A stretch of 64,000 nt of DNA from a virus. Numbering within the stretch: position 1 is the first letter of the stretch; every line of letters begins with the position of its first letter. The notes under the pieces were generated by a model. It was given only the letters and a program-made list of their open reading frames with translations, ran no database searches and was not told the DNA's origin. Position numbers and translations under genes: made by a program. Positions 40,398 through 64,000 of this stretch are shown piece by piece. The DNA is taken from positions 1 through 64,000 of IMG/VR virus record IMGVR_UViG_3300047095_000535. One strand, given 5' to 3'.

Positions 40398-40415
40398 TAA
40401 ACACTAGGATAATTT
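40398..40415 (+). promoter_or_regulatory. TAAACACTAG-box promoter
   Basis: TAAACACTAG-GA-TAATTT, GTG 6 nt later (40422). Confidence 0.75.
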
Positions 40416-40421
40416 GAGGGC

Positions 40422-40724
40422 GTGAAAAAGAAGATTACCAAGATCAACCTCAGTGAAACCACGACAGCGGAATCCGCTAAGTCTGTGGAGGAATATAGAA
40501 GCTCCGATCACCTATCCCCCAATGTGGGATATTGGATTTTAGGGGAGATACAGGTCGAACCTGTGGTGGATGGTCATATGGTGGTTTATAGGACTGTTCG
40601 AAACGGTGTGGCTTGTCCCGGCGTTTTTGTATCGTCCAAGGTTGAAAAAGTAGAGGAAAAACACGGGGTTACATATGTGACCACTGCCAACAGCATTTAT
40701 TTGATAGCGGATTACGAGAAATAA
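40422..40724 (+). CDS. Hypothetical protein
   Basis: 100 aa; box promoter upstream. Confidence 0.6.
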   Translation: MKKKITKINLSETTTAESAKSVEEYRSSDHLSPNVGYWILGEIQVEPVVDGHMVVYRTVRNGVACPGVFVSSKVEKVEEKHGVTYVTTANSIYLIADYEK

Positions 40725-40729
40725 ATTGT

Positions 40730-41218
40730 ATGGAATTTTTAAGAACCAATATAACCCAAGAGTGGAAAGATCTCGTAGAAGAGTTTCCAGAAATCTTTTT
40801 AGAACCTTCCCCTGAAGTATTGGAGGACTTTAAAAGGTGTAAACGAACGTTTGAGGTTGATCAGATTTGCAACCTACGATACGGGTTTGAATGTGGCATT
40901 GGTTGGAAGGACATAATTCGGGATTTTTGTGTAAAAACCCGGGAACTTGTAAACACCGCTAAAGCGAACGGGCATGAGATTCATTTTAAAACCTTTATAC
41001 TGAAGGAAAAGTTGGGCGGGCTTAGAAACCAAGGATTTTTCTATGGACCGGACTATAGGTTGTACTATGAGCAATTCCGGAAAATAGATTCCGAGTTGGA
41101 GTCCAAATCTTACCATGTTTGTGAATGTACTGGCCTTTCAGGAAGTTTGGTCTCCCTCCCCGGTGGATGGTTACAGGTTTTAAACCCGGAGTTAGCTAAA
41201 GCGGCAAACGCTAAGTAA
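40730..41218 (+). CDS. Hypothetical phage protein
   Basis: FECGIGW...KEKLGGLR...VCECTG pattern seen in phage hypothetical proteins. Confidence 0.6.
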   Translation: MEFLRTNITQEWKDLVEEFPEIFLEPSPEVLEDFKRCKRTFEVDQICNLRYGFECGIGWKDIIRDFCVKTRELVNTAKANGHEIHFKTFILKEKLGGLRNQGFFYGPDYRLYYEQFRKIDSELESKSYHVCECTGLSGSLVSLPGGWLQVLNPELAKAANAK

Positions 41219-41226
41219 ATATTGGC

Positions 41227-42126
41227 ATGATATTTTCCACCTTATTAGAGAAGATTAGAAATCCTCTACGAAAGCAGGAGTTGGCGCGTACTGGCGGGAA
41301 CATAGATTACCGTAAAGTTAAAACGCCAACTGCGGACGACTGGAAGAATAAGGTTATTCAAGGGGAAGGTCTGAACGATGAGGAATCAATCATTAGAGCG
41401 AAATATACGGCTCTACATAAGGTGTTTCCAGATAGGGCGGAAAAATGGCTTGATAACCTAGCCTTTGATAAGGGTCTTGGAATACTAAGAACCAAGCTGG
41501 ACCCGTCTGTTCGAAAGCTTTATGAGAAGTATGGGGTTCAGGTTTTTGTGGATAAGTACGCGACTGGTAAGTACGCTCCAACCTCGTACGAGTATCGGGT
41601 ATTTATTTACGCATTTAATAACTTTCTAAGTTCAATAACTGGACTTCTCCCTAATAAAAAGCCAAAAATAATAATTACGAATAAATACCAAAATCCTTTA
41701 TTTAAGGCGTATACGAAGGATACCCCAATTGCGTTATATTATGATAGGATGATATACGTGGATGAATACGCGGCGGAAGATCCCGAATCCTATATACATG
41801 AGTACGCGCATTACCTTGCGGACCTGATTCCCAAGCAATCCGAACCTATGCTGGAGAAAGCGTACAATGATATGCTTGACTTTTACTGGAGACGTGCTAA
41901 AAAGAAGAGGTATGACGTATCGGCCAAACTAAGATCCAAGGAAGAGGAAGCGATTGCCGATAAATGGAGAAAGAGGATTTCCACTAAACTAGGAATCCCT
42001 GAGTATGGACTGACCAACAAGGACGAGTTTTTTGCGGTTCTGATTCAAAAATGGAATACGCTGCCCAACAATATGGCAACCTATCGGTATAAACAAACTG
42101 TGAAAACGTTACTTTCAAGACTCTAA
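41227..42126 (+). CDS. Zincin metallopeptidase (HEXXH, lethal-factor-like)
   Basis: IHEYAHY plus downstream YGLTNKDEFFA; TAAATA 5 nt upstream. Confidence 0.7.
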   Translation: MIFSTLLEKIRNPLRKQELARTGGNIDYRKVKTPTADDWKNKVIQGEGLNDEESIIRAKYTALHKVFPDRAEKWLDNLAFDKGLGILRTKLDPSVRKLYEKYGVQVFVDKYATGKYAPTSYEYRVFIYAFNNFLSSITGLLPNKKPKIIITNKYQNPLFKAYTKDTPIALYYDRMIYVDEYAAEDPESYIHEYAHYLADLIPKQSEPMLEKAYNDMLDFYWRRAKKKRYDVSAKLRSKEEEAIADKWRKRISTKLGIPEYGLTNKDEFFAVLIQKWNTLPNNMATYRYKQTVKTLLSRL

Positions 42127-42149
42127 TCCAGACAAAATGAAACAAAACA

Positions 42150-42344
42150 ATGAATAAGGTGCTATATGAAGGCAATATAGGAAGCTACAGCTTCATCATG
42201 ACTAGCGAAGACGTGATCGATGTATGGAACGATGTAAGTAATGAACGACCAGACTCTTTTATCTTCATAAAAGAGGGATGTATCAAGAACCAGAAGGATT
42301 TTGATATGGAGATTAGTTATTGGTTCTTGAAAAACGTAGGATAA
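42150..42344 (+). CDS. Hypothetical protein
   Basis: 64-aa ORF in the co-oriented run. Confidence 0.5.
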   Translation: MNKVLYEGNIGSYSFIMTSEDVIDVWNDVSNERPDSFIFIKEGCIKNQKDFDMEISYWFLKNVG

Positions 42345-42348
42345 AAAT

Positions 42349-43217: not shown

Positions 43218-43710
43218 AAAGTATTGGGAAAGGTACGATAACATCGATTTTACAAAGGGTAAAAAACCACCAGACCTTCCAATACCCCCTAAACAAAAAT
43301 ACGAGTCAAAACCATCCTCAACAGGGGGTTTTCTGTTTTTAGACGATGTTAGGATGCCTTCAAGTGCGTACGCATATTCTCATAACCAGTATCTCCTCGC
43401 TGCGAGCGGGATTCCATACGGAAGTTGGGATATCGTACGGTCATACGAAGAGTTCGTGAAATACATCGAGGAAAAAGGTATTCCTGCCGTGGTGTCGTTC
43501 GATAACGACTTGTACCACAACGGAAATCCCTCTTGTACGGAGAGAGTGAAATCCGGTTGTGACTGTGCGCGGTACTTGGTGGAACGGTGCAAGGAGCTTC
43601 AGCGGGAAATCCCGGTGTACTATATCCATTCGGCCAATCAACAAGCCCGTCTGGTAATTGAGAGAACGATGGAAATCGGACGAAAGCAGATAAACACTAG
43701 GACATCATAG
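43168..43710 (+). CDS. Cyclic-phosphate-processing receiver-domain protein
   Basis: LFLDDVRMP...IVRSYEEF...VVSFDNDL...KSGCDCARYL...IHSAN motif series. Confidence 0.75.
   Translation: MSEWKGKQSWVRPRDHRKYWERYDNIDFTKGKKPPDLPIPPKQKYESKPSSTGGFLFLDDVRMPSSAYAYSHNQYLLAASGIPYGSWDIVRSYEEFVKYIEEKGIPAVVSFDNDLYHNGNPSCTERVKSGCDCARYLVERCKELQREIPVYYIHSANQQARLVIERTMEIGRKQINTRTS
43691..43708 (+). promoter_or_regulatory. TAAACACTAG-box promoter
   Basis: TAAACACTAG-GA-CATCAT, GTG 6 nt later (43715). Confidence 0.75.
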
Positions 43711-43714
43711 CGGC

Positions 43715-44443
43715 GTGACTTACAACTTTAGAAAAAATGAAATTATCCTGCTTGGGGATACACACTCTTTGGAGATCACGCGGGATATCTTAAAAACCCG
43801 TGAGGTAATAGAGGGCAGCGATATCTGGCATTGTGGGGATACGGCGTTGGGGTTTGGCGATATAGCTTATTCTATAAACAATGCCCTTACTTGGCTGGGA
43901 ATGTATAACCAGATATGTAAGGATTTGGATATCCGACTGTATATCAATCACGGAAATCACGACGCTACATATCCTGAGATTTGGGATTCCATATGGTGTA
44001 ATGTAACCATGGTCAAGACCGGAGACGTTGCGACATTCCCCAATGGAAAGACCGCACTTCTAGTAGGTGGTGGAATCAGCGTGGATAGGGTTACTCGAAA
44101 AAACAATTTTGATTATTGGGCGGGTGAAGCCACTCCGATTCTTGAGGACGTTCCGAAGTGTGATATTGTGTTCTCTCATGATTGTCCTGAGAAGTTCAAT
44201 CACCCCACGGCGACCTTACCCAATCATTATGGATGGTATGTGGATAGAGATCCTACCTTAATGGCGGATTGTGCTAATCAGCGCAAAACCATGACTGATA
44301 TTGTGGATAGGTCTGAAGCGAAGACTTTGTTCTACGGACATTTTCACAATTCAATGACTCAGAAGATTGACGGGGTTTATGCGCGTTGTTTGGATATCAA
44401 CGAATTGTTCTTTTTTGACGCGGAGAAGGAGTACACGGTATGA
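43715..44443 (+). CDS. Calcineurin-like metallophosphoesterase
   Basis: GDTH, CGD, GNHD, GGISVD, SHDCP and GHFH motifs. Confidence 0.88.
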   Translation: MTYNFRKNEIILLGDTHSLEITRDILKTREVIEGSDIWHCGDTALGFGDIAYSINNALTWLGMYNQICKDLDIRLYINHGNHDATYPEIWDSIWCNVTMVKTGDVATFPNGKTALLVGGGISVDRVTRKNNFDYWAGEATPILEDVPKCDIVFSHDCPEKFNHPTATLPNHYGWYVDRDPTLMADCANQRKTMTDIVDRSEAKTLFYGHFHNSMTQKIDGVYARCLDINELFFFDAEKEYTV

Positions 44444-45003
44444 GTGAAAGGTTTTTATTCTTAGATCTTGACGAGACTCTGATTTCCACTTTATATGCCA
44501 ATAACGAGTATCATGCGGATCAGTTGTTGGAGATATATACCCAACATTGGAAAGGGGAGAAATATACCCTGTCTGATGGGTGGTATGTGTCTTTCTTACG
44601 GGAATGGTCGAAGGACTTGATAGCTTATTATCAGGCGATACTAGGACACAAGAACGTTGGCATTTTATCATGGGGAACAGTGGAGTATATTACGTATGTA
44701 AATCAACTAATGGAGTTGAATGTAGCAGGATATAATATATATGGCCGGGAAGACATGGGGGCGAACGTTCCCAAGTTAAAAGGTCTTAACAAGGTTCTGG
44801 TGGATAACGAGGATTATAACCATCACCTTAAAATGGGGTATCCATACACGAAGATAAACTTTTTAGAAGAGTTGCCAGCAAACAAATTGGTTACGGTTCG
44901 GTCGTTTGACGTACGGTACTCCTATGGGGATTTGTGGGATACGGAGTTTGAAGATTTAACGGTCCAGATTGATCTTGCGTTTAGGGCGGGCCAACCAGAG
45001 TAA
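44440..45003 (+). CDS. HAD-superfamily phosphatase (FCP1/NIF-like)
   Basis: FLDLDETLI motif I; VLVDN motif IV. Confidence 0.75.
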   Translation: MSERFLFLDLDETLISTLYANNEYHADQLLEIYTQHWKGEKYTLSDGWYVSFLREWSKDLIAYYQAILGHKNVGILSWGTVEYITYVNQLMELNVAGYNIYGREDMGANVPKLKGLNKVLVDNEDYNHHLKMGYPYTKINFLEELPANKLVTVRSFDVRYSYGDLWDTEFEDLTVQIDLAFRAGQPE

Positions 45004-45019
45004 AACACTAGGAGATAAT
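45002..45019 (+). promoter_or_regulatory. TAAACACTAG-box promoter
   Basis: AAAACACTAG-GA-GATAAT, ATG 6 nt later (45026). Confidence 0.7.
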
Positions 45020-45025
45020 AAAAAC

Positions 45026-45904
45026 ATGAAAGCATATAAGGCAACTATAAATATGAAATGCTGGGAGCTTACTTATGAGGTAGGCAAGACGTATTCGATA
45101 ACCCGTATGGAAATGTGTGACCACGGGTTTCACTTCTGTCCGGTAGTGAGGGACGTTTTCAACTACTATCTATATACCAAGGATATTGTGGTGATAGAAA
45201 TTGAGATTCTTGGTAGTGTGGCCATCCTTGGAGATAAGGGGGTCACGGATAAGATGAAGGTTCTACGAGTCGTTCCAAAGGAAGAATATGGGGCGGAAGC
45301 ACCTACTCTTGTATATGATGAGAGAGGAAACGTGGTTTCTGAAAATATTCGTGTTTGCTCGAAGTTTGAAAACGGGTTGTATACGTATGAATATGACGAG
45401 CGTAACAATATGACTCGTAAAACTCTTCCCAACGGTGTTGAATGGGTGTACGAGTATGATGAGGGAAACCGCATGACCAGACAGACTTGTTCGAATCGTG
45501 GTACTGAATGTGAGTACGCGTATAATGAGCGTGGCAACATGATTTCTAAGACCTCTAGCCATGGCACATTGACGTTTGAGTATGATGAGCGCAACAATCT
45601 AATCTCTGAATCATCTTCCGGGGGAAATGCTCCAACGACACATAAATATGATGAGCGTAACAACCGGATCTCGACAGACCGGAACGGTAGCTTTACTACT
45701 TGCGAGTATGACGAACGAGATAACAAGATTTCGGAAACAGATGGAAGTGGGCATAAGAGTGTGTTTGGTTATGATGATCAAAATCGACGCGTTTCTTCTA
45801 TATACGGTCCTTACGGTGATACATACCTCAATAGGTATGACGAAGCGGGCAATTTGGTGTTTTCATCCACTCCTAGATATCATTGGGCCATAACAATCGA
45901 GTAA
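45026..45904 (+). CDS. Conserved phage N-terminal domain fused to YD/RHS-like repeats
   Basis: MKAYKA...YEVGKTY...CDHGFHFC domain, then about 9 YxYDERNN repeats; start moved to 45026. Confidence 0.75.
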   Translation: MKAYKATINMKCWELTYEVGKTYSITRMEMCDHGFHFCPVVRDVFNYYLYTKDIVVIEIEILGSVAILGDKGVTDKMKVLRVVPKEEYGAEAPTLVYDERGNVVSENIRVCSKFENGLYTYEYDERNNMTRKTLPNGVEWVYEYDEGNRMTRQTCSNRGTECEYAYNERGNMISKTSSHGTLTFEYDERNNLISESSSGGNAPTTHKYDERNNRISTDRNGSFTTCEYDERDNKISETDGSGHKSVFGYDDQNRRVSSIYGPYGDTYLNRYDEAGNLVFSSTPRYHWAITIE

Positions 45905-45920
45905 AACACTAGGATATCAT
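45903..45920 (+). promoter_or_regulatory. TAAACACTAG-box promoter (upstream of rIIB, predicted leadered)
   Basis: AAAACACTAG-GA-TATCAT; no start codon at the predicted +1. Confidence 0.6.
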
Positions 45921-45931
45921 GGCGTCGTCAC

Positions 45932-45959
45932 TTGACAAATGGGATTTTAATAGTAGAAT
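45932..45959 (+). promoter_or_regulatory. Sigma70-type promoter TTGACA-N16-TAGAAT
   Basis: ATG of rIIB lies 8 nt after the -10 element. Confidence 0.7.
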
Positions 45960-45967
45960 AAGAAGGT

Positions 45968-46969
45968 ATGAAGTACATTACAAACACAGCAGCAATCGTG
46001 CTTTTTCTTGACGGGAAAAGCGTTCGGGTGGAAAAAACGGACAGACGTTATCCACTAATTGTCAAGGTTTTCCAACTTCCGTTGGAAGATCAAGAGGCGG
46101 AAGTCAATCGTATCCTTGGGATACCGGAGGATAAACTGGAAGATGTTATCGCGGATGAGGAACATTTCGATGTGGTAGACGGCAACGTGTATTACAATGG
46201 GGAGGAACTCCCGCCCGCACTTTCAACGAAAGTGAAGTCCATTATCAAGGATGGTCTCCCACTAGGACACTTTGAAGCGTTTTGGAAGAAACTGTCTCTT
46301 AACCCTAGTTCCACTTCCGTTAAGGAGTTGGTGGACTTTTTGGAGTATAAGGAACTCCCTATTACGGAAGACGGATGCTTCCTTGCTTACAAGGGCGTTT
46401 CCCCTACTCTTTATTCCATCCATGGAAACAAGGAAACTAAGGTTGTTAGAGGTCAGGTGGATGAAACCGGGCATATTTACAACGGAGTTGGTGAGATCGT
46501 GGAAGTTCTTCGTCGGGACGTCGATGACAATCGTCACAACGAATGTTCACACGGTCTCCATGTCGGTTCACTGGATTATGCTTCGGGATGGGGCCATATG
46601 ATGGTTGTCGTCAAGGTCAATCCTGCGGATGTTGTGTCGGTTCCTGCCGGCTGTTCATTCCAGAAGTGCCGCGTTTGTAAGTATGAAGTGGTTTCCGCGT
46701 ATGGACAGGAAATCACCGCATCCGTGGTTGACGAGAAGGGCGAATCCACGTTGGTTCCCGATGTTCAAAAGGAACGTTCCGCTACGGTGGATCGTATCGA
46801 GAAGTATCTCACTGGAAAACGCGAAGACGGGTATGATGAAGTCACTGTTCGTCAGATTCAGAATATTTTCTCCCCTAATTGGGTGACTCGCATGGAAGTG
46901 TTGGACGCTTTACAAGAGTTGGATGAGTATTGGGAGTCTTATGACGGAGCGGACTACGTGGAACTGTAA
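45968..46969 (+). CDS. rIIB: rIIB-like protector from prophage-induced early lysis
   Basis: FLEYKELPITEDGCFLAYKGV, RRDVDDNRHNECSHGLHVGSLDYA, VKVNPADVVSVP, KCRVCKYEVV. Confidence 0.85.
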   Translation: MKYITNTAAIVLFLDGKSVRVEKTDRRYPLIVKVFQLPLEDQEAEVNRILGIPEDKLEDVIADEEHFDVVDGNVYYNGEELPPALSTKVKSIIKDGLPLGHFEAFWKKLSLNPSSTSVKELVDFLEYKELPITEDGCFLAYKGVSPTLYSIHGNKETKVVRGQVDETGHIYNGVGEIVEVLRRDVDDNRHNECSHGLHVGSLDYASGWGHMMVVVKVNPADVVSVPAGCSFQKCRVCKYEVVSAYGQEITASVVDEKGESTLVPDVQKERSATVDRIEKYLTGKREDGYDEVTVRQIQNIFSPNWVTRMEVLDALQELDEYWESYDGADYVEL

Positions 46970-46990
46970 GTTCTAAGCGGACAAAACAAG

Positions 46991-47075: not shown

Positions 47076-47093
47076 TAAACACTAGAATACTAT
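47076..47093 (+). promoter_or_regulatory. TAAACACTAG-box promoter
   Basis: TAAACACTAG-AA-TACTAT, ATG 6 nt later (47100). Confidence 0.75.
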
Positions 47094-47099
47094 AAACAT

Positions 47100-47426
47100 A
47101 TGGAAAACGTATTAAAACTATATATCAGAAACGAGAAGAATCAACCAAGAGGCGTCGTGGTGGCGGTAAAAGTCGGTGATCAGATGTGTTACGGATTTTC
47201 CCTTCTAAACACTCGTCTTGACAAGTGGGATAGGGTGAAAGGTACTGCGATTGCGATGGCGAGAGCAGCGGCGGCATCTTATAAACTGCCTGTTGTTCCG
47301 GAACGCGAAAAGATGGTTGTTGATGGTTTTAACAAGCTTCAGGATCGGGCCTTGAAATACTTCAAGGACATTCCACCGGAAAACATTCGCATCGATCTTA
47401 CGGTTGATGAAGAAGAGGAGTGGTAA
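47100..47426 (+). CDS. Hypothetical protein
   Basis: 108 aa; box promoter upstream. Confidence 0.65.
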   Translation: MENVLKLYIRNEKNQPRGVVVAVKVGDQMCYGFSLLNTRLDKWDRVKGTAIAMARAAAASYKLPVVPEREKMVVDGFNKLQDRALKYFKDIPPENIRIDLTVDEEEEW

Positions 47427-47435
47427 CAGTTTTAA

Positions 47436-47946: not shown

Positions 47947-48337
47947 TAGACTACCCAAACTAACGGGGCGGGAAATGCGGAAGTTTGATTTTTTCGGATG
48001 GTTTATGTGCGCGGTTGGAGGTCTTCTACTCTATGTTTATACGAAACATGCCATGGAGTTCGACTCCCATTCGTGGTGGGGAGTGGTTCTTGTCTTATGG
48101 GTCTTTTATGACTATGTGACACGGGTAGCCTTCGGACGAGTCTACCAGTTCGTGTTTTTTGACACTATTCTGCGGAAGTTGTACAAGATACAGTCGTCTT
48201 CAGATATGTATTACGTATGTGCCGAGAATGAAGAGGAGTTGGCCTTATACATGCACCTTCATTACCCGAATGTCAAGTATACGATTGAAGAGGAATCACA
48301 CGTCGAGTCGTTTATCAGAACGGACGAACATCAATAA
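47939..48337 (+). CDS. Predicted membrane protein
   Basis: Two hydrophobic segments near the N-terminus. Confidence 0.55.
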   Translation: MTNRLPKLTGREMRKFDFFGWFMCAVGGLLLYVYTKHAMEFDSHSWWGVVLVLWVFYDYVTRVAFGRVYQFVFFDTILRKLYKIQSSSDMYYVCAENEEELALYMHLHYPNVKYTIEEESHVESFIRTDEHQ

Positions 48338-48352
48338 ACACTAGCGGATAAT
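48335..48352 (+). promoter_or_regulatory. TAAACACTAG-box promoter
   Basis: TAAACACTAG-CG-GATAAT, ATG 6 nt later (48359). Confidence 0.75.
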
Positions 48353-48358
48353 ACTCAC

Positions 48359-48859
48359 ATGTTACTGAAATACACAGACGGGGATTTGTTGGATATGCTG
48401 GATGAGGGAAGGGTAAACTATGTCCTTCATTGTTGCAATTGTCAGGCTATAATGGGGTCTGGAATTGCGGTTCAGATCAAGAATCGATATCCAGCGGTCT
48501 ATCAGGCTTATTTAAATCATCACGATCTCATGGGTCTTGAATTGGGTACGGTATCATACGGTAAAATAGGGGATATCGCAAGTATGATGAGGCGTTATAT
48601 TTTTAACTTACACGCACAACATTTATTTGGAACCGGGGATCGGTTTGTCGATTACGAGGCATTGTATAAATCGATGGAGCGGGCTAGGGATATTATCGTT
48701 AGTAATATCGGGGGAGTTGGCACTGTAGGAGTGCCGTATAATATGGCGGCGTTTAGAGCGGGGGGAGATTTTCGCATCGTCGAGACTATGTTGGAAGTAA
48801 TTTTTGAGAATACCAGTTTGGATGTAATGATAGTAAAATACAACGGAAAAAACGTATGA
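48359..48859 (+). CDS. Macro-domain protein (ADP-ribose/Appr-1''-p processing)
   Basis: GDLL, HCCNCQAIMGSGIAVQIKNRYP, FNLHAQ, and PYNMAAFRAGGDF variant of the GIxGG loop. Confidence 0.85.
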   Translation: MLLKYTDGDLLDMLDEGRVNYVLHCCNCQAIMGSGIAVQIKNRYPAVYQAYLNHHDLMGLELGTVSYGKIGDIASMMRRYIFNLHAQHLFGTGDRFVDYEALYKSMERARDIIVSNIGGVGTVGVPYNMAAFRAGGDFRIVETMLEVIFENTSLDVMIVKYNGKNV

Positions 48860-49491
48860 AAAAGACAGCAGTAAAGAAAACAGTGGCGAAAAAAACAGCG
48901 AAGAAAGTGGCGACCAAAACCTCTCCTAAAGACCCAAGAAAGGAAGCAGTGCGGGCGTTTTACAACTTCTTCAAGAAGTATGACCAAGCGGAATTATCTA
49001 CCAAGGTGATTCCAGTTGACGGGGTGGTGATCAATGCGACTTACCAAATATGTATATATGAGGACTATATGGATATCGATTGGTGTTCGTATGACGACGA
49101 AACCGTATCCCCTACGGTTAGAAAATTCATGGACGTGATGAACATGGAAAATTGGGAGTGCTGGTTCGACGATAACGTGGACTCGTCTTCTTTGGATGAG
49201 TATTCCAAGGAAGTCGATGCTATCTGTAACGAGTATAGAACCTTGATCAATGCTCTTATAAAACATGGGTTCTCCGTCGAAGGGGTGTTGGATATTTTCG
49301 AAACCGTCGATAACTTCGAGACTGCTTACAAGCAATGCTCGTCTAATAACGTGCGGACCATTTACCTGAACTCTTCGTATAGTGCGGAAGTTCGTGAAGG
49401 GTTCGGCTACGTCAAGGTCGGGTGTCAGAAAATTGACATCGACTCAGTGAGAGGCATTCTCGCCGCGTATGACGAGCTTAATCCTCAATAA
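48856..49491 (+). CDS. Hypothetical protein with histone H1-like K/A-rich N-terminal tail
   Basis: MKKTAVKKTVAKKTAKKVATK followed by an acidic domain. Confidence 0.6.
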   Translation: MKKTAVKKTVAKKTAKKVATKTSPKDPRKEAVRAFYNFFKKYDQAELSTKVIPVDGVVINATYQICIYEDYMDIDWCSYDDETVSPTVRKFMDVMNMENWECWFDDNVDSSSLDEYSKEVDAICNEYRTLINALIKHGFSVEGVLDIFETVDNFETAYKQCSSNNVRTIYLNSSYSAEVREGFGYVKVGCQKIDIDSVRGILAAYDELNPQ

Positions 49492-49506
49492 ACACTAGGA
49501 TACCAT
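49489..49506 (+). promoter_or_regulatory. TAAACACTAG-box promoter
   Basis: TAAACACTAG-GA-TACCAT, ATG 5 nt later (49512). Confidence 0.75.
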
Positions 49507-49511
49507 AAGGT

Positions 49512-50909
49512 ATGAAGTTAAGCGTATCAAAGGATGCAGACCCTAACTACCTTGCGGTTGTTGTAACTATTCCCGAAATCAAGCCTCACCCCAACGCAGA
49601 CAAGTTGAGTTGTGTGGAGATTTTCGGGAATAGCATCATCATCGCCAAGGATATGTATGCGGTTGGTGAGAAGGTCGTGTATTTCCCGGTGGAATCATGC
49701 TTGAAACCCGAGTTTTTGTCTTGGGCGAATCTGTTTGACAAACCGGAGCTGAATGCGGATGAAAAGACCAAGGGGTTTTTCCATGTCAAGGGTTGTCGTG
49801 TCAAAGCGATCAATCTGCGGCAGATGCCCTCTCAGGGATTTCTATACAAGACCGAACAACTGGCCAAGTACTATAAGATTTCCGATTCGGAGTTTAAAGT
49901 CGGGGAATCCTTTGATACGGTGGGCGACCACCAATTAGTTACCAAATACATTAGACCGGAGAGTAACAGTGGTCAACAGAACTTCAAGAAGAGTAAGATC
50001 CCAGCATGGGTGAACAACACTCTAGGATATCTTCCTAGACCCGTTCGTAGGATGGTATATCCGCCTATCAAGTGGTACTACAAGGTGGATGCCCAAGAGG
50101 GGTTCAAATCCAGAATTGTCGAAGGGCAGTTTCATTACCACTATAAAACCGAGCATCTTGGCAAGAATATCTTCGCGCTGAATCCGGATGATAATATCAC
50201 GATTACCCACAAGTGTCATGGTACATCCGCAATTTATGGAAACCTGCTTTGTAAGAGAAACCTGTCCCTTCTGGACAGATTATATAAGGCTTGTGGAAAA
50301 GCGGTAAAAGAAACTGAGTATAGATTGGTATACTCTTCTCGTTCCGTGGTCAAAAACCGGAAGGATGGAAGATACACGGACGATCTATGGGGTAAACACG
50401 CGGAAGAATTGGAAGGTAGGATTCCAGAGGGGTACACCGTGTACTCCGAGATTGTTGGATGGGCGTCTTCCGGTAAAATGATCCAGAAGGACTACGACTA
50501 TGGTATTACTAGAGGCGAGTCCGAGCTTTGGGTGTATAGAATCACTCATACCGATGCCGAAGGGGTGATCAAAGAATTGTCTTGGAACGCTATCGATGTT
50601 TTCTGCACCGAGTATGAACTGAAGATGGTCCCGGTTATTTGGGACGGATTCGACGGAGACGCCAAGGATGTTTTTCCTGATATCGTCATAGATGACAACT
50701 GGAGGGATAACTTCCTACACAGGCTCAAGGAAACTTACCTAGACAAACCATGCGCGTTCTGCTCTACTGGCGTAGTCGGGGAGGGTATCGTGGTTAAAAT
50801 CAATTCCAAGGAAGCTAAACCAGCGTTGAAGTTCAAATCTCCTTTATTCACAATTAAAGAATCGTCTGCTAGAGACGCAGGAGAAGTTGACATGGAGGAG
50901 GAAAGCTAA
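49512..50909 (+). CDS. RNA ligase with N-terminal OB/tRNA-binding domain (DRB0094/Rnl2-like family)
   Basis: IKPHPNADKL OB fold; motif I THKCHGTS; YSEIVG; EGIVVK; LKFKS. Confidence 0.85.
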   Translation: MKLSVSKDADPNYLAVVVTIPEIKPHPNADKLSCVEIFGNSIIIAKDMYAVGEKVVYFPVESCLKPEFLSWANLFDKPELNADEKTKGFFHVKGCRVKAINLRQMPSQGFLYKTEQLAKYYKISDSEFKVGESFDTVGDHQLVTKYIRPESNSGQQNFKKSKIPAWVNNTLGYLPRPVRRMVYPPIKWYYKVDAQEGFKSRIVEGQFHYHYKTEHLGKNIFALNPDDNITITHKCHGTSAIYGNLLCKRNLSLLDRLYKACGKAVKETEYRLVYSSRSVVKNRKDGRYTDDLWGKHAEELEGRIPEGYTVYSEIVGWASSGKMIQKDYDYGITRGESELWVYRITHTDAEGVIKELSWNAIDVFCTEYELKMVPVIWDGFDGDAKDVFPDIVIDDNWRDNFLHRLKETYLDKPCAFCSTGVVGEGIVVKINSKEAKPALKFKSPLFTIKESSARDAGEVDMEEES

Positions 50910-51461: not shown

Positions 51462-51479
51462 TAAACACTAGGATATCAT
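51462..51479 (+). promoter_or_regulatory. TAAACACTAG-box promoter
   Basis: TAAACACTAG-GA-TATCAT, in-frame ATG 6 nt later (51486). Confidence 0.75.
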
Positions 51480-51485
51480 ATGACC

Positions 51486-51965
51486 ATGACGACAACAAAA
51501 ACTTGCTCACACCCCTTTCAGATAGACGGGGAACCGTGTGGAATGTGTGAGTTATTAAACACCGCGCCTTCGGGCTTGAGAATGTATTTTTTTGTAATGG
51601 GGAATATATCTGGTCGGCAACAGGGTATTCAAGCGGGTCATGCCGCACTGGAATATGCTCGTAAGTATGGCCACCAAAAACAGTATCAGGAATTTGTAGA
51701 CCTTGACAAGACTTTTATCCTGTTGGATGGGGGCGGTTCCCGGGATATGGTGACTAGGGTTCAGGAGTTGTTTGTACACGGCATACAACATGTCACCTTC
51801 AGTGAACCCGATCTAAGCAATTCTATAAGCGCAATCGCGTTCATCGTTCCCGAGGTTATATACAACTTCGACGTTCAGGCGTATTGTGATGGCGATCCAC
51901 GCTACCCCGAGGAAAATTACACCATCTTTCAATACTTAAGATCATTTAAACTGGCGAGCAACTAA
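51486..51965 (+). CDS. Peptidyl-tRNA hydrolase 2 (PTH2)-like protein
   Basis: MYFFV..NISGRQQGIQAGHAALEY...FILLDGG...FSEPDL..SISAIAF pattern. Confidence 0.7.
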   Translation: MTTTKTCSHPFQIDGEPCGMCELLNTAPSGLRMYFFVMGNISGRQQGIQAGHAALEYARKYGHQKQYQEFVDLDKTFILLDGGGSRDMVTRVQELFVHGIQHVTFSEPDLSNSISAIAFIVPEVIYNFDVQAYCDGDPRYPEENYTIFQYLRSFKLASN

Positions 51966-52194: not shown

Positions 52195-52360
52195 GGGTTC
52201 TTGTAAAACAATGAGGGTGATGGCTAAGGAAGCGATTGATAATACTGATTGGGATTCTTATTGGAAAAAGGTGGACGTGGAAGTTGCCAAAGATGCGGAG
52301 GCGTATAGAGAGTCTAGACGAAGGTCTGTAAAGGATATGAACAATATAGTACTAGACTAA
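52187..52360 (+). CDS. Small hypothetical protein
   Basis: In-frame ATG 52187 overlapping the upstream gene end. Confidence 0.45.
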   Translation: MSEGSCKTMRVMAKEAIDNTDWDSYWKKVDVEVAKDAEAYRESRRRSVKDMNNIVLD

Positions 52361-55223: not shown

Positions 55224-55241
55224 TAAACACTAGGGTATAAT
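55224..55241 (+). promoter_or_regulatory. TAAACACTAG-box promoter
   Basis: TAAACACTAG-GG-TATAAT (consensus -10), ATG 6 nt later (55248). Confidence 0.8.
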
Positions 55242-55247
55242 CACAGT

Positions 55248-55448
55248 ATGAAACTACCTAAAGGCAAACCTACATTGGATCATTTAAACGACTACGCCAG
55301 TTTGTTTAGCTTTATTGGTAACGGGTTGGATTCGGCTAGAAATATACAAGGGTTGTCAAAAGGCGATAAGGAAGAACTTTGGGACATGGTGCTAACTTGC
55401 GCGAGATGCTCTGCCGTGTTAGACAGAATAGAGATGCTTAACAGGTAA
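55248..55448 (+). CDS. Hypothetical protein
   Basis: 66 aa; box promoter upstream. Confidence 0.6.
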   Translation: MKLPKGKPTLDHLNDYASLFSFIGNGLDSARNIQGLSKGDKEELWDMVLTCARCSAVLDRIEMLNR

Positions 55449-58062: not shown

Positions 58063-58679
58063 GACTGTTTTTAATTAGGCACGGCCAGTCCGAAGGCAAC
58101 GTTGATAAAACCAAGTACTTTGAGAAGTTGGATTGTGAAATCGAACTTACGGAGTTGGGGGGTACCCAAGCGGTGACAGCGGCGTTGGATATAGCTGATT
58201 ATTGTGACGAGTCCCGATTTGCAGGCAACATATTCTACAGTCCATATATACGGGCGGAACAAACGGCCCATATCATATGTGATAAGCTGGAGAGCTATGG
58301 CAGCTATGTTATATGTTATGAATGCGACCCGAGACTTCGTGAGAGGGAATGGGGAGGACTCAGGGACATTGTAATGTCTGGGCAGAAAACGGAAAGTCAC
58401 TTCAATTTCTTCTATAGACCGGATGGAGGCGAGTCGTTCGCTGATTGTTATGATCGGGTGGCGTCTTTCCACCAATGGTTGCTTACTTATCACCCACAGG
58501 ACGACAATATCATTGTGGCGCATGGCGAGTTCAACAAGCTTTATGCGATGTATCTGATGCGGTGGACTTTGAAGGAATTTGATAAATGGAGGACTCCTAG
58601 AAACGGAGAAGTCATGTATTTCAATGACAGTGATTTAAGTGCGGAAACTCCACTCGCTCTAAAGGTCGATAAACACTAG
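58059..58679 (+). CDS. Histidine phosphatase (phosphoglycerate mutase family)
   Basis: LIRHGQSEGN, SPYIRAEQT, LREREWG, GGES and VAHG motifs. Confidence 0.92.
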   Translation: MRLFLIRHGQSEGNVDKTKYFEKLDCEIELTELGGTQAVTAALDIADYCDESRFAGNIFYSPYIRAEQTAHIICDKLESYGSYVICYECDPRLREREWGGLRDIVMSGQKTESHFNFFYRPDGGESFADCYDRVASFHQWLLTYHPQDDNIIVAHGEFNKLYAMYLMRWTLKEFDKWRTPRNGEVMYFNDSDLSAETPLALKVDKH

Positions 58680-58687
58680 GATATTAT
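58670..58687 (+). promoter_or_regulatory. TAAACACTAG-box promoter
   Basis: TAAACACTAG-GA-TATTAT, in-frame GTG 6 nt later (58694). Confidence 0.75.
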
Positions 58688-58693
58688 CAACAT

Positions 58694-59056
58694 GTGTCAA
58701 CTGAACTTTACGCTATTACATTTAAGGAAACTGGAGAGGTTTTAAACGCCAAGTTGTTTTCACAGTATTGGAAGACCTATGGCGGCAGCCAGTTATACGG
58801 ATGGAGAATGCCGAAGAAGATATACACTACCTTGGGAAAAGCCAAGAGTGGATTCGCACATGTTCCATATGACTTGAAACCCCACTTGGAGATATCAATT
58901 TTCACTCGCTCGTCTGCTGTGATGGACGGAGAAACTCTGAGAGACGACCAAGAGGAACGACGGGCTAAGAAGGATCAAGCTAGAAAAGAACGTTTAGCTA
59001 AGTATAGACTTAAACAGGCGCAAGAGGAACTGAATAAAGCACAAGCGGCGTTTTGA
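58694..59056 (+). CDS. Hypothetical protein
   Basis: 120 aa; box promoter upstream. Confidence 0.6.
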   Translation: MSTELYAITFKETGEVLNAKLFSQYWKTYGGSQLYGWRMPKKIYTTLGKAKSGFAHVPYDLKPHLEISIFTRSSAVMDGETLRDDQEERRAKKDQARKERLAKYRLKQAQEELNKAQAAF

Positions 59057-59071
59057 AACAGAAGGGTACTA

Positions 59072-60120: not shown

Positions 60121-60138
60121 TAAACACTAGGCCATACT
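60121..60138 (+). promoter_or_regulatory. TAAACACTAG-box promoter
   Basis: TAAACACTAG-GC-CATACT, in-frame ATG 5 nt later (60144). Confidence 0.75.
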
Positions 60139-60143
60139 TCGGC

Positions 60144-60590
60144 ATGTTGAAAGCGGAAGGTAAAGTATTCGTAGATATACGAAAGAAGCGAGTGGTCGTT
60201 ACCACTACGTATGACTTCGTGCGGTACTACCAATGGTTCATACATAGGGCTTATTGGGTGTGGGTGGACCTTCCCTTCCATGGCAGTCATATTACCATAG
60301 CCAATGACAAGTTACACAAGAATGTGAATTGGGCATGGGCGTATAAGAAGTACCATGGAAAGACCATTGAATGGGAGTATGACGAGGATATGATTATCGG
60401 AGGTTTCCGTAAAGGGTTTTATATGTTCTATATGAAGGTCTTTTCCAAAGACATGGAGGATATCAAAAAGGATATCGGAGTTCGTGAGAACGATGAATAT
60501 CGCGGACTTCATGTGACCCTTGGAAGTATTATGAAAGCTGGTGCTGTAGTAAGGTATTGGTGGCCCCCTATGATTGAGGTTAAACACTAG
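60144..60590 (+). CDS. 2H phosphoesterase-like protein
   Basis: Two HxT motifs (GSHITI, GLHVTLG) about 75 aa apart; start moved to 60144. Confidence 0.7.
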   Translation: MLKAEGKVFVDIRKKRVVVTTTYDFVRYYQWFIHRAYWVWVDLPFHGSHITIANDKLHKNVNWAWAYKKYHGKTIEWEYDEDMIIGGFRKGFYMFYMKVFSKDMEDIKKDIGVRENDEYRGLHVTLGSIMKAGAVVRYWWPPMIEVKH

Positions 60591-60598
60591 GATACGCT
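60581..60598 (+). promoter_or_regulatory. TAAACACTAG-box promoter
   Basis: TAAACACTAG-GA-TACGCT, ATG 6 nt later (60605). Confidence 0.75.
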
Positions 60599-60604
60599 GA
60601 GGGC

Positions 60605-61009
60605 ATGAAACGACGATGTATCATTTTGAGAGGAACTGCGGGAGTGGGGAAGTCCACTTTCTGCGATCTTATCGCGGAACCAAAGGTTGTATGTTGCGCG
60701 GATTTTTTCTTTGAAAAAGATGGTGAATATAATTGGGACGGGGCGAAGTTGAGAGAAGCGCATGAACAGTCCGTCAACGCTTTTAAACAGGCGTTACTAG
60801 ACCCTCATGTGGATAATATCATTGTTGCTAATACCAATTGTAAGGAGCGTGACCTTTCAGTGTATATTGAAGAAGCCGAAAAGTTGAACATACCAGTTAC
60901 GGTAGTGGTGTTGGAGAAAAGACATGACGGTGATAATCTTCATGGGGTACCTGATGAAGTGATTGCCCGACAAGAACAAAATCTAAGAAACAGTTTAAAG
61001 CTAAAATAA
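60605..61009 (+). CDS. P-loop polynucleotide kinase-like protein (AAA_33/N4BP2-like)
   Basis: ILRGTAGVGKST, CADFFF, IIVANTN and HGVP motifs. Confidence 0.85.
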   Translation: MKRRCIILRGTAGVGKSTFCDLIAEPKVVCCADFFFEKDGEYNWDGAKLREAHEQSVNAFKQALLDPHVDNIIVANTNCKERDLSVYIEEAEKLNIPVTVVVLEKRHDGDNLHGVPDEVIARQEQNLRNSLKLK

Positions 61010-61010
61010 T

Positions 61011-61418: not shown

Positions 61419-61428
61419 GAATAACTAT

Positions 61429-61701: not shown

Positions 61702-61703
61702 TT

Positions 61704-62120
61704 ATGGCAAAACCTAAACAGATAGTTTTTCCTCCGGGGTTTGACCCGAACCGTAAACCACAGTTTCTTACAAGAAAACCTGTGGAGTTTATCGACGACA
61801 ACACGGAGAAAGCGCGTGTGGAGATATATGATGAGGATTGGGTGGATCTCGATCCCGGGTTGAAATGGCGGTTTACAGCAGAGCGTTACCCATACGATGA
61901 TTATTACACGTATTACATGGTTGGATACGTTAGAAATCGGGAGAAAAATCCTAATTATGAACGGGATCTGACCAATTACGAGTACCAGAAGGTCAAGCAT
62001 GAGGAAGCTATTAAGTTTTGGGAAGACTGGAAATCGATTTGGGATAAAGAACAACAAAAGAAAGCAGAAGAGAAAGAACGAGAAATACTTAAACAACTAA
62101 AAGAAAAATACGAAAAATGA
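61704..62120 (+). CDS. Hypothetical protein
   Basis: C-terminal REILKQLKEKYEK. Confidence 0.6.
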   Translation: MAKPKQIVFPPGFDPNRKPQFLTRKPVEFIDDNTEKARVEIYDEDWVDLDPGLKWRFTAERYPYDDYYTYYMVGYVRNREKNPNYERDLTNYEYQKVKHEEAIKFWEDWKSIWDKEQQKKAEEKEREILKQLKEKYEK

Positions 62121-62464
62121 ATGCTATTATGATGCTAACACCTTATAAGGACCGGGGAGTATGGATGTTTGATGACCCTTCGGTTGGACTATTACGCGAA
62201 CCCTTCGTGTTGGGTATCGGGGAAATCTTGGATAAGATGACCGAGGATATTGCCGATGCCGTTAAGGGGTTTAACCTGTTTTTCTCCTCTACTGAGTTTC
62301 CCGCATGTCAAGGGTTTCTTAATCGGTGGAAAGCGGACTCCGGAGGTACTTGGTATGTTTGGGTGACGGAAGAAATGGCAGGATGGTTATGCCCCGCATT
62401 GTTCAAATATTTTCAAATCGCTCCTGATGAATTGTACTTCCGAGCGGAAGCGATTAAACACTAA
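62117..62464 (+). CDS. Conserved hypothetical protein
   Basis: WMFDDPSVGLLREPFV...GWLCPALFKYF..APDELY pattern. Confidence 0.65.
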   Translation: MNAIMMLTPYKDRGVWMFDDPSVGLLREPFVLGIGEILDKMTEDIADAVKGFNLFFSSTEFPACQGFLNRWKADSGGTWYVWVTEEMAGWLCPALFKYFQIAPDELYFRAEAIKH

Positions 62465-62472
62465 GGTATGAT
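62455..62472 (+). promoter_or_regulatory. TAAACACTAG-box promoter
   Basis: TAAACACTAA-GG-TATGAT, ATG 6 nt later (62479), but that ORF has only 5 codons. Confidence 0.7.
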
Positions 62473-62595
62473 TGGCACATGATTCTCCCTGTATAGGGAA
62501 TCTATATGCTTCATGTTTACGTCAAGCATTGTTGGTGACATTTCCAACTTGCCACATTATTCATATAGTATATTTAACACCGAAGTCCATTCATA

Positions 62596-63708
62596 ATGAA
62601 AATATCTGAACAAATACTCCATTTTTTAAAAGCTCCTTCTGACGAGTTTAAGCTTAAGTATGGTCAGGTGTTTGGTAGAGACTGTGTGTTGATTACGCCT
62701 TCCGATATGGGAACACATTGGAACGCGGAAAACTCAATTTTTCGTAGTTGTTTATGTGATTGTAACAGCGGGCAGATTTATAATATCGGGTTTCGAAAGT
62801 TTGTAAACTTCTCCGAACGTCCGGAATATGAACCTTGGGATAACGAGTGGAAGGTAGAGGCTCGCCACAAAATAGATGGTTCACTGCTATGTATTTCAAA
62901 AATAGATAAAAATGTATTGGCTAGAACCAGAGGGGTGTTTGATGCTACAGTTCATGAGACTGGAGACGAGATAGAAACGTTTAAAAATAAGTATCCCTTG
63001 GTTTTTGATAATGAATATATAAACTCAGAAAGATACACGATATTATGCGAACATACTACACCAAATCGTGTCATAGTTATTAGAGAGCATTCAATACCTA
63101 CTCTAACCCTATTGGGTATTATATCCCACGACACTTGTAAATATGTGTCACAAGACGAGTTGGACGAGTGCGCTATTCGATGGGGAGTGAACCGTCCTGA
63201 AAAATATGAATATGCTTCCGTTTCGGAATGTCTCGCGGATGTGGCGGCTTGGAAAGGTAAGGAAGGGGTGGTACTATGTTCTCCTGATGGACAAACCCTG
63301 AAGAAAATCAAGGCGGATTTGTATCTGGAACTCCACAAGGTTTCTACGGGGTACACCAACATCAATCAGGTTTTGGACCTGTTCATGACCACTCCTCGAT
63401 TTCCTGATTGGAAGGACTTCTACACATATGTCGAAACCACTTTGGATTACGAGGTTGCGGAGAAGCTGTGTGGTCATATTGGCAAGATCAGCGACTCTTA
63501 TAAACTGGTTCTGGAGCATATCGACAAGATTCACAAGGCGGTGGACATGGTTCGTGGACCTTCGTTCACCCGTAAGGATCAAGCTTTGTTTATTACAGGG
63601 CGTTGGGACGATTGGAGAAAGGTAGCGGCGTTCCAGATACTTGACAACCGGGAATTGGATGATAAGGTTATCCGGAAGGGAATTGAGACTTACCTACTTT
63701 ACGATTAA
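62596..63708 (+). CDS. RNA ligase 1 (T4 Rnl1-like)
   Basis: FRKFVNFSE, motif I KIDGSL, RTRG, CEHTTPN, EGVVL, KKIKADLY. Confidence 0.88.
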   Translation: MKISEQILHFLKAPSDEFKLKYGQVFGRDCVLITPSDMGTHWNAENSIFRSCLCDCNSGQIYNIGFRKFVNFSERPEYEPWDNEWKVEARHKIDGSLLCISKIDKNVLARTRGVFDATVHETGDEIETFKNKYPLVFDNEYINSERYTILCEHTTPNRVIVIREHSIPTLTLLGIISHDTCKYVSQDELDECAIRWGVNRPEKYEYASVSECLADVAAWKGKEGVVLCSPDGQTLKKIKADLYLELHKVSTGYTNINQVLDLFMTTPRFPDWKDFYTYVETTLDYEVAEKLCGHIGKISDSYKLVLEHIDKIHKAVDMVRGPSFTRKDQALFITGRWDDWRKVAAFQILDNRELDDKVIRKGIETYLLYD

Positions 63709-63723
63709 ACACTACAATACAAT
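63706..63723 (+). promoter_or_regulatory. TAAACACTAG-box promoter
   Basis: TAAACACTAC-AA-TACAAT, ATG 6 nt later (63730). Confidence 0.75.
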
Positions 63724-63729
63724 AACAAC

Positions 63730-64000
63730 ATGAAAGCATATAAAGCAACTTACAACATGAAGTGTGAGACCCTTACCTATGAGGTAGGGAAGACGTATTC
63801 AATAACCAGTATGGAAATGTGTGACCACGGGTTTCACTTCTGTCCTGTCATGAGCGACGTTCTTGAGTTTTATCCTTATCATAAGGACTTCATTCTAATG
63901 GAAGTGGAGATTCTTGGGAAGAGGGTGATTAAAAGGGAGAAAGGTCTTACTGATAAGATGAGGGTGGTTCGCATCGTTCCCCCGGAAGAGTATGAGTTTG
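63730..64000 (+). CDS. Paralogue of 45026..45904 (partial, runs off right edge)
   Basis: MKAYKATYNMKCETLTYEVGKTYSITSMEMCDHGFHFCP...; shares a 37-nt exact DNA match with the paralogue. Confidence 0.8.
   Translation, partial: MKAYKATYNMKCETLTYEVGKTYSITSMEMCDHGFHFCPVMSDVLEFYPYHKDFILMEVEILGKRVIKREKGLTDKMRVVRIVPPEEYEF

Follow-up and report, generated by a model that had tools for sequence, protein, structure and literature searches.

In the middle promoters of phage T4, a MotA box, (a/t)(a/t)(a/t)TGCTTtA, lies 12 +/- 1 bp from the -10 hexamer and is centred at -30, where MotA acts on an AsiA-remodelled sigma70 (PMC2988021). In phage P1, the sequence-specific DNA-binding activator Lpa operates by way of SspA, a protein associated with RNA polymerase (PMC1891329). 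Leaderless messages have been described for the middle and late genes of the Thermus phage phiYS40 (review PMC3594737), and -10 elements adjoining open reading frames (ORFs) are common in Deinococcus-Thermus (PMC12340547). Furthermore, T4-type phages contain promoter-early stem-loop (PeSL) cassettes, in which a repeated promoter occupies the seams between small, variable early genes (PMC4122927). The subject of this report is a stretch of 64,000 nucleotides (nt), hereafter the window, that comprises bases 1 to 64,000 of an 83,707-nt IMG/VR virus record (IMGVR_UViG_3300047095_000535; G000). It belongs to an uncultured freshwater T4-like myovirus and carries repeated copies of a ten-base box, TAAACACTAG, standing just ahead of a -10-like hexamer and, in most cases, of a start codon.

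Middle promoters are commonly held to be missing from T4-like phages other than those of the enterobacterial group, for instance in the Melnitz paper, because MotA boxes cannot be found in these phages (PMC9004378). The available excerpts of two papers on Far-T4 phages (PMC4360716 and PMC7198788) contain no promoter analysis, and the word 'promoter' has 0 occurrences in the former. In a literature search that did not extend to supplementary files, which may hold promoter tables, no description of the box or of a leaderless T4-like programme was found, and text matches to the ten-base sequence were to unrelated papers among the matches listed. An original prediction, made from the letters of the window, considered the box and its hexamer as an unusual class of middle-type promoters driving leaderless mRNAs. 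The analysis presented here points, with reasonable probability, to a phage-specific promoter class in which a private box placed by the -10 hexamer would replace the -35 element and messages would begin on the start codon.

Distribution and anatomy of the box

The exact box TAAACACTAG occurs 10 times in the window, exclusively on the + strand, against 0.13 copies expected, and none of 100 shuffles reached 10. When one mismatch is allowed there are 17 matches versus 4.19 expected. Four of the one-mismatch copies complete, together with the 10 exact ones, the set of 14 sites that had been predicted, all of them at the positions foreseen and on the + strand (Table 1). The other three (32916+, 47206+ and 54141-) were counted as chance matches since they are found without a start codon at the fixed distance; there is no hexamer at 32916 or 47206, and the one at 54141- reads TATACT. 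All 14 hexamers of the original prediction are correct, each lying 2 nt past its box, and in 13 of the 14 sites an ATG or GTG preceded by C or T follows 5-6 nt past the hexamer, the exception being the site at 45903 (GTC). The complete arrangement, AAACACTA-N3-[T/C/G]ANNNT-N6-RTG, appears in the window 11 times on the + strand and 0 times on the - strand, with a mean of 0.0 in 10 mononucleotide shuffles.

Extension of the motif search to a fuller genome revealed that the class is much larger than noted originally. The whole 83,707-nt record contains 21 exact boxes on the + strand and 0 on the - strand. A second IMG/VR record of 59,990 nt (G001) continues the same phage, sharing a 147-nt overlap with the end of the first at 99.3% identity, and contributes 43 further matches with at most one mismatch. 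In the 143,551-nt join of both records there are 75 box matches, 66 on the + strand and 9 on the - strand, and the full pattern of core, N3, hexamer, N6 and RTG occurs 42 and 3 times on these strands, respectively (mononucleotide shuffle mean, 0.0). All six exact minus-strand boxes are located at 122.5-131.8 kb of the join, a segment whose tRNA genes and most of whose called ORFs share this strand. A hexamer of the form [T/C/G]ANNNT lies 2 bases 3' of the box in 64 of the 75 matches, and a start codon opening at least 40 codons stands exactly 14 nt past the box in 41 of them; other distances are 13 nt (n=3), 16 nt (n=3) and 17 nt (n=2), and 14 matches have no such start codon within 80 nt. Measured from the hexamer, the leaderless-type spacing amounts to 6 nt in 41 matches and 5 nt in 3. 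Regarding their placement, 23 of the 64 hexamer-bearing sites lie between genes, 19 others overlap the end of a gene and 11 are situated within the final 30 nt of the preceding ORF; crude ORF calls cover 94% of this genome. The remaining 11 sites are within called ORFs that run antisense or reach too far at their N-terminus. The boxes favour one strand by 66 to 9 and gene boundaries by 53 of 64, two aspects on which the original prediction had left itself open to refutation.

The architecture of these sites was derived from an alignment of 30 sites of the record, 29 with at most one mismatch and 1 with two mismatches, from which 32916 and 47206 were excluded. Its consensus is R-W-TAAACACTAG-(g/a)(a)-TAyaAT-a-N4-Y-ATG. 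Each of the 10 box positions carries 1.2-2.4 bits, for a total of about 17 bits, and the hexamer conforms to a sigma70-type TAyaAT with A2 in 29 and T6 in 29 of the 30 sites. When the hexamer is set at -12 to -7, the A or G of the start codon falls on the predicted +1, the ten-base box spans -24 to -15 and its core AAACACTA spans -23 to -16, in agreement with the layout proposed in the original prediction. A pyrimidine at -1 and a purine at +1 are each present in 27 of the 30 aligned sites. Among the 19 hexamer-bearing sites of the join that have no start codon at +1, the pyrimidine is kept in 12 and the purine in 14, a behaviour that fits start-site selection rather than codon selection. As read from the sequence, the TAA with which the box begins shares its frame with the ATG located 24 nt downstream, so that ORFs driven by the box cannot begin further upstream.

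The absence of a -35 element, already remarked in the original prediction, is borne out by the flat alignment upstream of the box, since the 18 positions 5' of the RW dinucleotide carry at most 0.23 bits each in the 30 sites. In addition, a generic -35/-10 scan of the 44-64 kb segment returned 53 sites versus 45.6 +/- 6.5 expected and did not pick up the class: it missed all 14 box promoters in the window and found the separate promoter at 45932 alone. A Shine-Dalgarno sequence is also missing, as had been seen; the sole letters resembling one are the AGGA of ..TAGGA.., which is present in some copies 12 nt 5' of the start and is not conserved.

Table 1. Candidate promoters of the window, with the form of the box, the hexamer and the codon and ORF that follow (aa, amino acids)
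Feature	Coordinates	Strand	Box or -35	Hexamer	Start codon and ORF
Predicted box promoter	40398..40424	+	TAAACACTAG, exact (40398-40407)	TAATTT	GTG 40422, 100-aa ORF
Predicted box promoter	43691..43717	+	TAAACACTAG, exact	CATCAT	GTG 43715, 242 aa, metallo-phosphoesterase-like
Predicted box promoter	45002..45028	+	AAAACACTAG, one mismatch	GATAAT	ATG 45026, 292 aa
Predicted box promoter	45903..45929	+	AAAACACTAG, one mismatch	TATCAT	GTC at +1, no start codon
Canonical promoter, separate class	45932..45970	+	TTGACA-N16	TAGAAT	8 nt 5' of rIIB-like ATG 45968
Predicted box promoter	47076..47102	+	TAAACACTAG, exact	TACTAT	ATG 47100, 108 aa
Predicted box promoter	48335..48361	+	TAAACACTAG, exact	GATAAT	ATG 48359, 166 aa
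Predicted box promoter	49489..49514	+	TAAACACTAG, exact	TACCAT	ATG 49512 (13 nt past box), 465 aa, RNA ligase
Predicted box promoter	51462..51488	+	TAAACACTAG, exact	TATCAT	In-frame ATGs 51480 and 51486, the second at the predicted +1
Predicted box promoter	55224..55250	+	TAAACACTAG, exact	TATAAT	ATG 55248, 66 aa
Predicted box promoter	58670..58696	+	TAAACACTAG, exact	TATTAT	GTG 58694, 120 aa
Predicted box promoter	60121..60146	+	TAAACACTAG, exact	CATACT	ATG 60144 (13 nt past box), 148 aa
Predicted box promoter	60581..60607	+	TAAACACTAG, exact	TACGCT	ATG 60605, 134 aa
Predicted box promoter	62455..62481	+	TAAACACTAA (..CTAA), one mismatch	TATGAT	ATG 62479, opens just 5 codons
Predicted box promoter	63706..63732	+	TAAACACTAC (..CTAC), one mismatch	TACAAT	ATG 63730, 275 aa

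Two of these sites have particular surroundings. The box at 45903 is arranged in tandem with the canonical promoter, both of them ahead of the rIIB-like gene, and the next long gene after the box at 62455 starts at 62596 and encodes an RNA-ligase-like protein of 370 aa. Antisense to neighbouring box-driven genes, a low-GC (37%) island harbours a LAGLIDADG homing endonuclease gene (52357-53220, -) with an N-terminal helix-turn-helix (HTH) and a TAAATA before its ATG.

Units behind the box, neighbouring promoter classes and relatives

Evidence about the level at which the box operates came from units other than protein genes. In G001, the box at 12604 places its predicted +1 four bases 5' of a tRNA-Glu gene (12632), and that at 15640 places it nine bases 5' of another tRNA gene (15673). 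Moreover, the box at record position 72581 heads a 276-nt unit devoid of ORFs that folds into three similar two-tier hairpins (minimum free energy -63.9 kcal/mol, z = -3.58) and is closed by a stem and a T10 run directly 5' of the next box (record 72877), so that promoter, RNA, terminator and next promoter follow each other over 72581-72877. The location of the box ahead of tRNA genes and of a terminator-closed non-coding unit argues for a transcription signal and not a translation signal. Each hairpin of this unit (record 72605-72880) bears an AGCTACC motif and a GATATT...AAACAA loop; the unit lies 5' of the gene of a 689-aa protein and has no Rfam match. The tRNA genes form a cluster in G001 (L137 12632-19855, L138 1132-1218) of 16 members according to ARAGORN, 12 of them confirmed by Rfam, and a tRNA nucleotidyltransferase gene is found near it. 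One of the clustered tRNAs, directly behind a box promoter, has the anticodon CTA (amber-suppressor type; labelled Pyl by ARAGORN).

As for the protein genes, those driven by boxes are of the pre-replicative type, among them rIIA, two RNA ligases, a phosphoesterase and NAMPT. A phosphoribosyl pyrophosphate (PRPP) synthase gene is found in that region as well, and so is the rIIB-like gene, which follows the box at 45903 at a distance of 56 nt and has a -35/-10 promoter to itself. Between 44 and 64 kb, terminator-like sites show no enrichment (18 versus 14.7 +/- 3.8 expected).

A different kind of evidence is provided by a tandem array of four boxes in a locally GC-rich stretch on the minus strand of G001 (38358-38431), with 20, 24 and 20-bp spacing. 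Three of these boxes have no usable -10, which would argue for the box as an independent protein-binding site. Within the wider locus (G001 38258-38431, -), the four boxes are followed by a GC-rich stretch with a CGCGTACGCGTACGCG repeat and by two more box promoters, and the whole could be a binding array or a control region.

The box is not the only promoter signal of this phage. TAAATA is found 5-7 nt 5' of virion gene starts, ahead of 31 ORFs in the 143.6-kb join, in a T4-late-like, leaderless layout. Examples in the window (1619-41227) precede the genes at 2602(-), 6701(-), 9909(-), 14638 and 16785, as well as those at 22941, 26099, 32670, 34613 and 41227. The share of ORFs with TAAATA at offset -12/-11 is 21 of 221 for the join, 29 of 90 for the related contig G003, 6 of 70 for G004 and 1 of 147 for Rhodothermus phage RM378. 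A gp55-type late sigma (phrog_234, E = 4.5e-25) was identified in relatives; 4 of 7 records have it, none in more than one copy. The gene lies in a segment that, for this phage, is outside the analysed sequence. Also among the virion genes of the window, a run of about 13 G at approximately 25395-25410, just 5' of the tail-tube-like gene (25425-26039), may be slippage-prone or an assembly artefact.

A third class consists of TTGACA or TTGACT, a spacer of 16-18 bp, a hexamer and 5-8 nt to the start codon, and it occurs in the join at 11458 (window 11458-11496), 45932, 71284, 133087(-) and 132561(-). Those contributed by G001 precede minus-strand genes of 164 and 221 aa, and the one before a gene pair of 75 and 87 aa (record 71284) is conserved in the relative G008, where there are about twenty matches to the TTGACA-class pattern, some of them joining TTGACA with TAAATA. 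The presence of canonical TTGACA/-10 promoters indicates that the primary sigma of the host uses a normal -35, and this class could represent the true early promoters. Bacteroidetes-type promoters (TTTG...TAnnTTTG) were considered and discarded, as 48+53 -7 motifs compare with a shuffle mean of 60.65 per strand and the full pattern, with 6 on both strands versus 2.15 per strand in shuffles, is not enriched. Altogether, the predicted leaderless layout is a property of the whole lineage that goes beyond the box class.

The affiliation of the phage rests on several markers. Its large terminase shares about 35% identity with the terminases of T4-like cyanophages, and PHROG scans recognised tail sheath, tail tube, baseplate wedge, clamp loader, major head protein and ribonucleotide reductase. 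Its DNA was detected in 17 rows of freshwater and lake metagenomes from 14 studies, 4 of these rows containing at least half of the words. Megablast of 12 kb against cultured phages gave no match, and the nearest cultured phages reach about 33-39% identity in terminase or rIIB. RM378 was dismissed as a close relative (2 of 121 ORFs match by tblastn, with 0 boxes). Relatives with the same architecture were obtained by a specific pattern scan of IMG/VR, and further ones by an rIIB alignment; a single-sequence rIIA query of IMG/VR found no relative, and a 14-mer scan of the same database gave mostly single chance matches among the matches listed. The relative G008, a record of 202,205 nt and 33.8% GC that bears terminal repeats and has a completeness rating of 100%, is syntenic with the join, where its 38.6-104.6 kb segment of replication and head genes has almost no counterpart, which indicates that about 60 kb of this phage lie outside the analysed sequence. 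A contig of 141 kb with an identical terminase is on record.

Searching for the motif in relatives, as the original prediction had suggested, showed that the core and its offset are kept. The AACACTA core stands at the same offset before leaderless-type starts 41 times in the join, 37 in G008, 36 in G009, 30 in G011 and 0 in G012, a phage without the box class, and the same core is present in a 196.7-kb record (35.7% GC) and in G010 (37.6% GC). Across phages of 33.8-42.7% GC whose rIIB proteins are 55-62% identical, positions 1 (T/G/A) and 10 (G/A/C) of the box vary and AAACACTA is invariant. Eleven orthologous gene pairs of the join and G008 have a box at both members, with different letters in hexamer and spacer; for 10 of these pairs the proteins align from one of their first 6 residues onwards. 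This conservation of the box together with alignments that start at the N-terminus supports the start codon calls and selection on the geometry. The box was not found in G003 and G004 (terminase about 50% identical), contigs that have TAAATA-N5/6-ATG and may lack the early region, nor was the class present in the first 100 kb of the 147-kb Pelagibacter phage HTVC008M, where 11 of 24 TAAATA sites are of the TAAATA-N5-start type. A distant 364-kb phage has only three TAACACA motifs at 11-12 nt from hexamers.

Some genes of the lineage are interrupted or enlarged. The ribonucleotide reductase ORF of G001 (L137 5899-9186, -) encodes 1095 aa with an extra central segment, the terminase of G008 (6997-11482, -) is split or extended (947 + 565 aa), and LAGLIDADG-type inserts (PF14528) occur in relatives of the terminase. 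Inteins or homing elements seem to be common in these phages.

The reader of the box and competing explanations

Under the reading that we favour, host RNA polymerase with its primary sigma would melt the -10 hexamer, a sequence-specific factor, most likely phage-encoded, would read the box in place of -35 recognition, and transcription would begin on the A or G of ATG or GTG to yield leaderless mRNAs that would need no Shine-Dalgarno sequence. In this manner, the class would drive about 60 pre-replicative or accessory genes in addition to tRNA and non-coding RNA units. The components of this proposal differ in strength. Box and hexamer very probably form a promoter, and the spacing makes it quite likely that the 5' ends fall on the start codon. 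There is a slight leaning towards a reader encoded by the phage, and expression after the host-type early class, as the term 'middle' would suggest, is an evenly balanced call.

The search for MotA-like or sigma genes called for by the original prediction was carried out with protein profiles. MotA (PF09114) gave 0 matches at E <= 1 in seven records, which include the complete 202-kb relative and leave about 60 kb of this phage outside the search, and AsiA (PF09010) gave one sub-threshold match (E = 0.019, 12.4 bits) in an 894-aa frame of one relative, so that neither has a credible homologue there. Matches to sigma region 4 were restricted to the HTH of the homing endonuclease at 52357-53220(-) (E = 0.0012) and a 188-aa frame of G001 (E = 0.014). 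A second sigma of the PF04542 family is missing from G000 and G001, the gp55-like ORF alone being matched in relatives; no second gp55 (phrog_234) was found in the seven records; and phmmer with the RM378 sigma against all six-frame ORFs returned nothing below E = 1. No phage RNA polymerase appeared among 50 proteins scanned against PHROGs, a subset of the ORFs in which one scan comprised nine of the phage's own and one relative protein was the 153-aa gp55-like sigma, or in further scans. That relatives encode gp55 is as expected for T4-like phages using the host enzyme. Proteins encoded under host-type promoters (75, 87, 149, 138, 114, 216 and 234 aa, and others) were inspected as candidate readers and match no DNA-binding family. 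The basic 87-aa protein (record 71555-71818) is 55% identical to its G008 counterpart, and an Atlas search with this conserved protein gave no usable match. Further searches gave only weak matches to phrog_1740, in G000 (E = 0.0068, within the HTH of the LAGLIDADG endonuclease) and G008 (E = 0.0027, in a 295-aa open frame), a weak PaaX match (E = 0.038) in an ORF antisense to box-driven ORFs that is probably spurious, and no WhiB, a marker of actinobacterial hosts, in five records.

Several observations weigh against the favoured reading. The records searched yielded no box-binding protein, with MotA absent, AsiA at noise level and sigma region 4 weak. Nineteen of the 64 hexamer-bearing sites of the join have no start codon at +1, and several of them show leaders of 2-31 nt without a Shine-Dalgarno sequence. 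GTG accounts for 4 of the 45 starts at +1, and GUG is a poor leaderless initiation codon in E. coli. Motifs resembling Shine-Dalgarno sequences are rare genome-wide, and therefore their lack at box-driven genes constitutes weak evidence for leaderlessness. In addition, the gene calls are crude longest-ORF calls, the four-box array is present in this phage alone among the phages compared, and a core that is invariant over 34-43% GC fits a conserved host factor as well as a phage factor. The original prediction was too strong in stating that the geometry implies a phage activator or sigma appropriation, given that profile searches found no reader protein. A new form of sigma appropriation, in which a phage protein on the host holoenzyme would recognise an 8-bp box centred at -20, combined with a phage-wide leaderless switch embracing all three promoter classes, can be contemplated tentatively. 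If true, the leaderless switch would let the phage separate its own messages from those of the host at the ribosome, and the box would be read one helical turn nearer the -10 than MotA.

Could the host read the box without any phage factor, by means of an alternative sigma, a transcription factor or a contact between holoenzyme and spacer? The class would then be a strong early promoter, an idea in keeping with the invariance of AAACACTA across phages so different in GC content and in rIIB, with the fruitless profile searches for a phage-encoded reader and with the nature of the driven genes (rIIA, small accessory ORFs, tRNAs), which are of the kind that T4 expresses early. We consider it unlikely, because canonical promoters with TTGACA/TTGACT and N16-18 in the same genomes would make a second private signal redundant and because the box is far richer in information than the hexamer; three of the four boxes of the tandem array have no usable -10, which also speaks against this idea, and we know of no bacterial sigma consensus that resembles the box. 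These same boxes could be invoked in favour of an operator through which a phage repressor, bound over promoters made of a -10 alone, would shut the class off. An asymmetric site in many copies, co-oriented with transcription and placed at gene boundaries, is reminiscent of the asymmetric and co-oriented 'stoperator' sites of mycobacteriophage L5. Promoters with only a -10 suffice in some bacteria, such as Deinococcus-Thermus (PMC12340547). What renders this explanation very improbable is that many hexamers are weak (CATCAT, TACGCT, TGACAT, CAGAAT) and have no extended -10 TG, that the sites, once deprived of the box, hardly differ from about 540 chance occurrences of hexamer, N6 and RTG in the genome, and that the distance between box and hexamer is fixed to the base pair, something needed by a promoter element and not by an operator.

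A last alternative transfers the function of the motif to the RNA: within longer transcripts that begin elsewhere, it would enhance translation, serve for processing or take the place of a ribosome-binding signal. Its constant distance to the start codon, the AGGA (..TAGGA..) in some copies and the lack of any other ribosome-binding site would be explained in this way. The AGGA, however, is missing from many copies (TAGaat, TAGcgg, TACaat) and from most of those in G008 (..CTAA..), the box also precedes tRNA genes and an RNA unit without ORFs, and a terminator-like stem with a T10 run lies directly 5' of one box. The invariant A2/T6 and the Y-1/R+1 pair are, furthermore, the signature of promoter melting and start-site choice. 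A role in RNA is the most remote of the explanations weighed here, well short of the phage-specific promoter class.

Significance and comparison with known systems

A common freshwater lineage of T4-like phages would possess a very clear third promoter class with a box of its own, about 60 copies per genome and conservation across species. If a phage protein reads the box, this would be a new way to redirect host RNA polymerase, and if the messages are leaderless, ribosome-binding sites would be dispensed with in nearly the entire programme of the lineage. Such messages are not an assumption of gene callers, which consequently are likely to mis-annotate start codons and small genes in phages of this kind. 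Being short and rich in information, the promoter is easily tested in reporters and pull-downs, and the box could be used as a marker for early genes in metagenomic contigs.

Among the programmes known in T4-type phages, the PeSL cassettes resemble the box promoters in the repetition of a promoter between small genes, where it could serve as a recombination point; unlike them, the box seems to lack a regular stem-loop or terminator partner, one clear stem with a T10 run being found before the box at record 72877. The T4 late system (TATAAATA, gp55/gp33/gp45) has its parallel in the TAAATA that this lineage places 5-7 nt before virion starts and in the gp55 encoded by relatives, whereas the box promoters have TAyaAT with an upstream box instead of TAAATA and serve a different gene set. 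The box class also resembles T4 middle promoters, in which a private box replaces the -35 alongside a host-type -10, in dozens of copies, at pre-replicative genes and in a phage without an RNA polymerase of its own (PMC2988021); in the phage studied here, none was found among the proteins scanned. As anticipated by the original prediction, the geometry differs from that of MotA boxes, the box being 2 bp from the -10 (2-3 bp over all sites) and centred near -20, in contrast to 12 +/- 1 bp and -30 (PMC2988021). Moreover, AAACACTA is unrelated in sequence to the MotA box, there is no MotA or AsiA homologue in the seven records, complete genome included, and the start codon coincides with the predicted +1, unlike in T4, whose messages carry leaders.

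Outside the T4 group, P1 late promoters share with the box class a sigma70 -10 without a -35 and an activator DNA site immediately upstream. Their activator box lies near -22 and would be the closest known geometry; unlike the asymmetric box described here, the P1 element is a short inverted repeat, and P1 late messages have leaders. With phiYS40 and Deinococcus-Thermus, the class has in common a -10 a few bases 5' of the start codon and a leaderless layout, which in phiYS40 amounts to a phage-wide programme. The promoters of phiYS40 reportedly share the -10 alone as a common element; here, by contrast, a 17-bit box is added to it, in a phage that is T4-like and comes from lakes.

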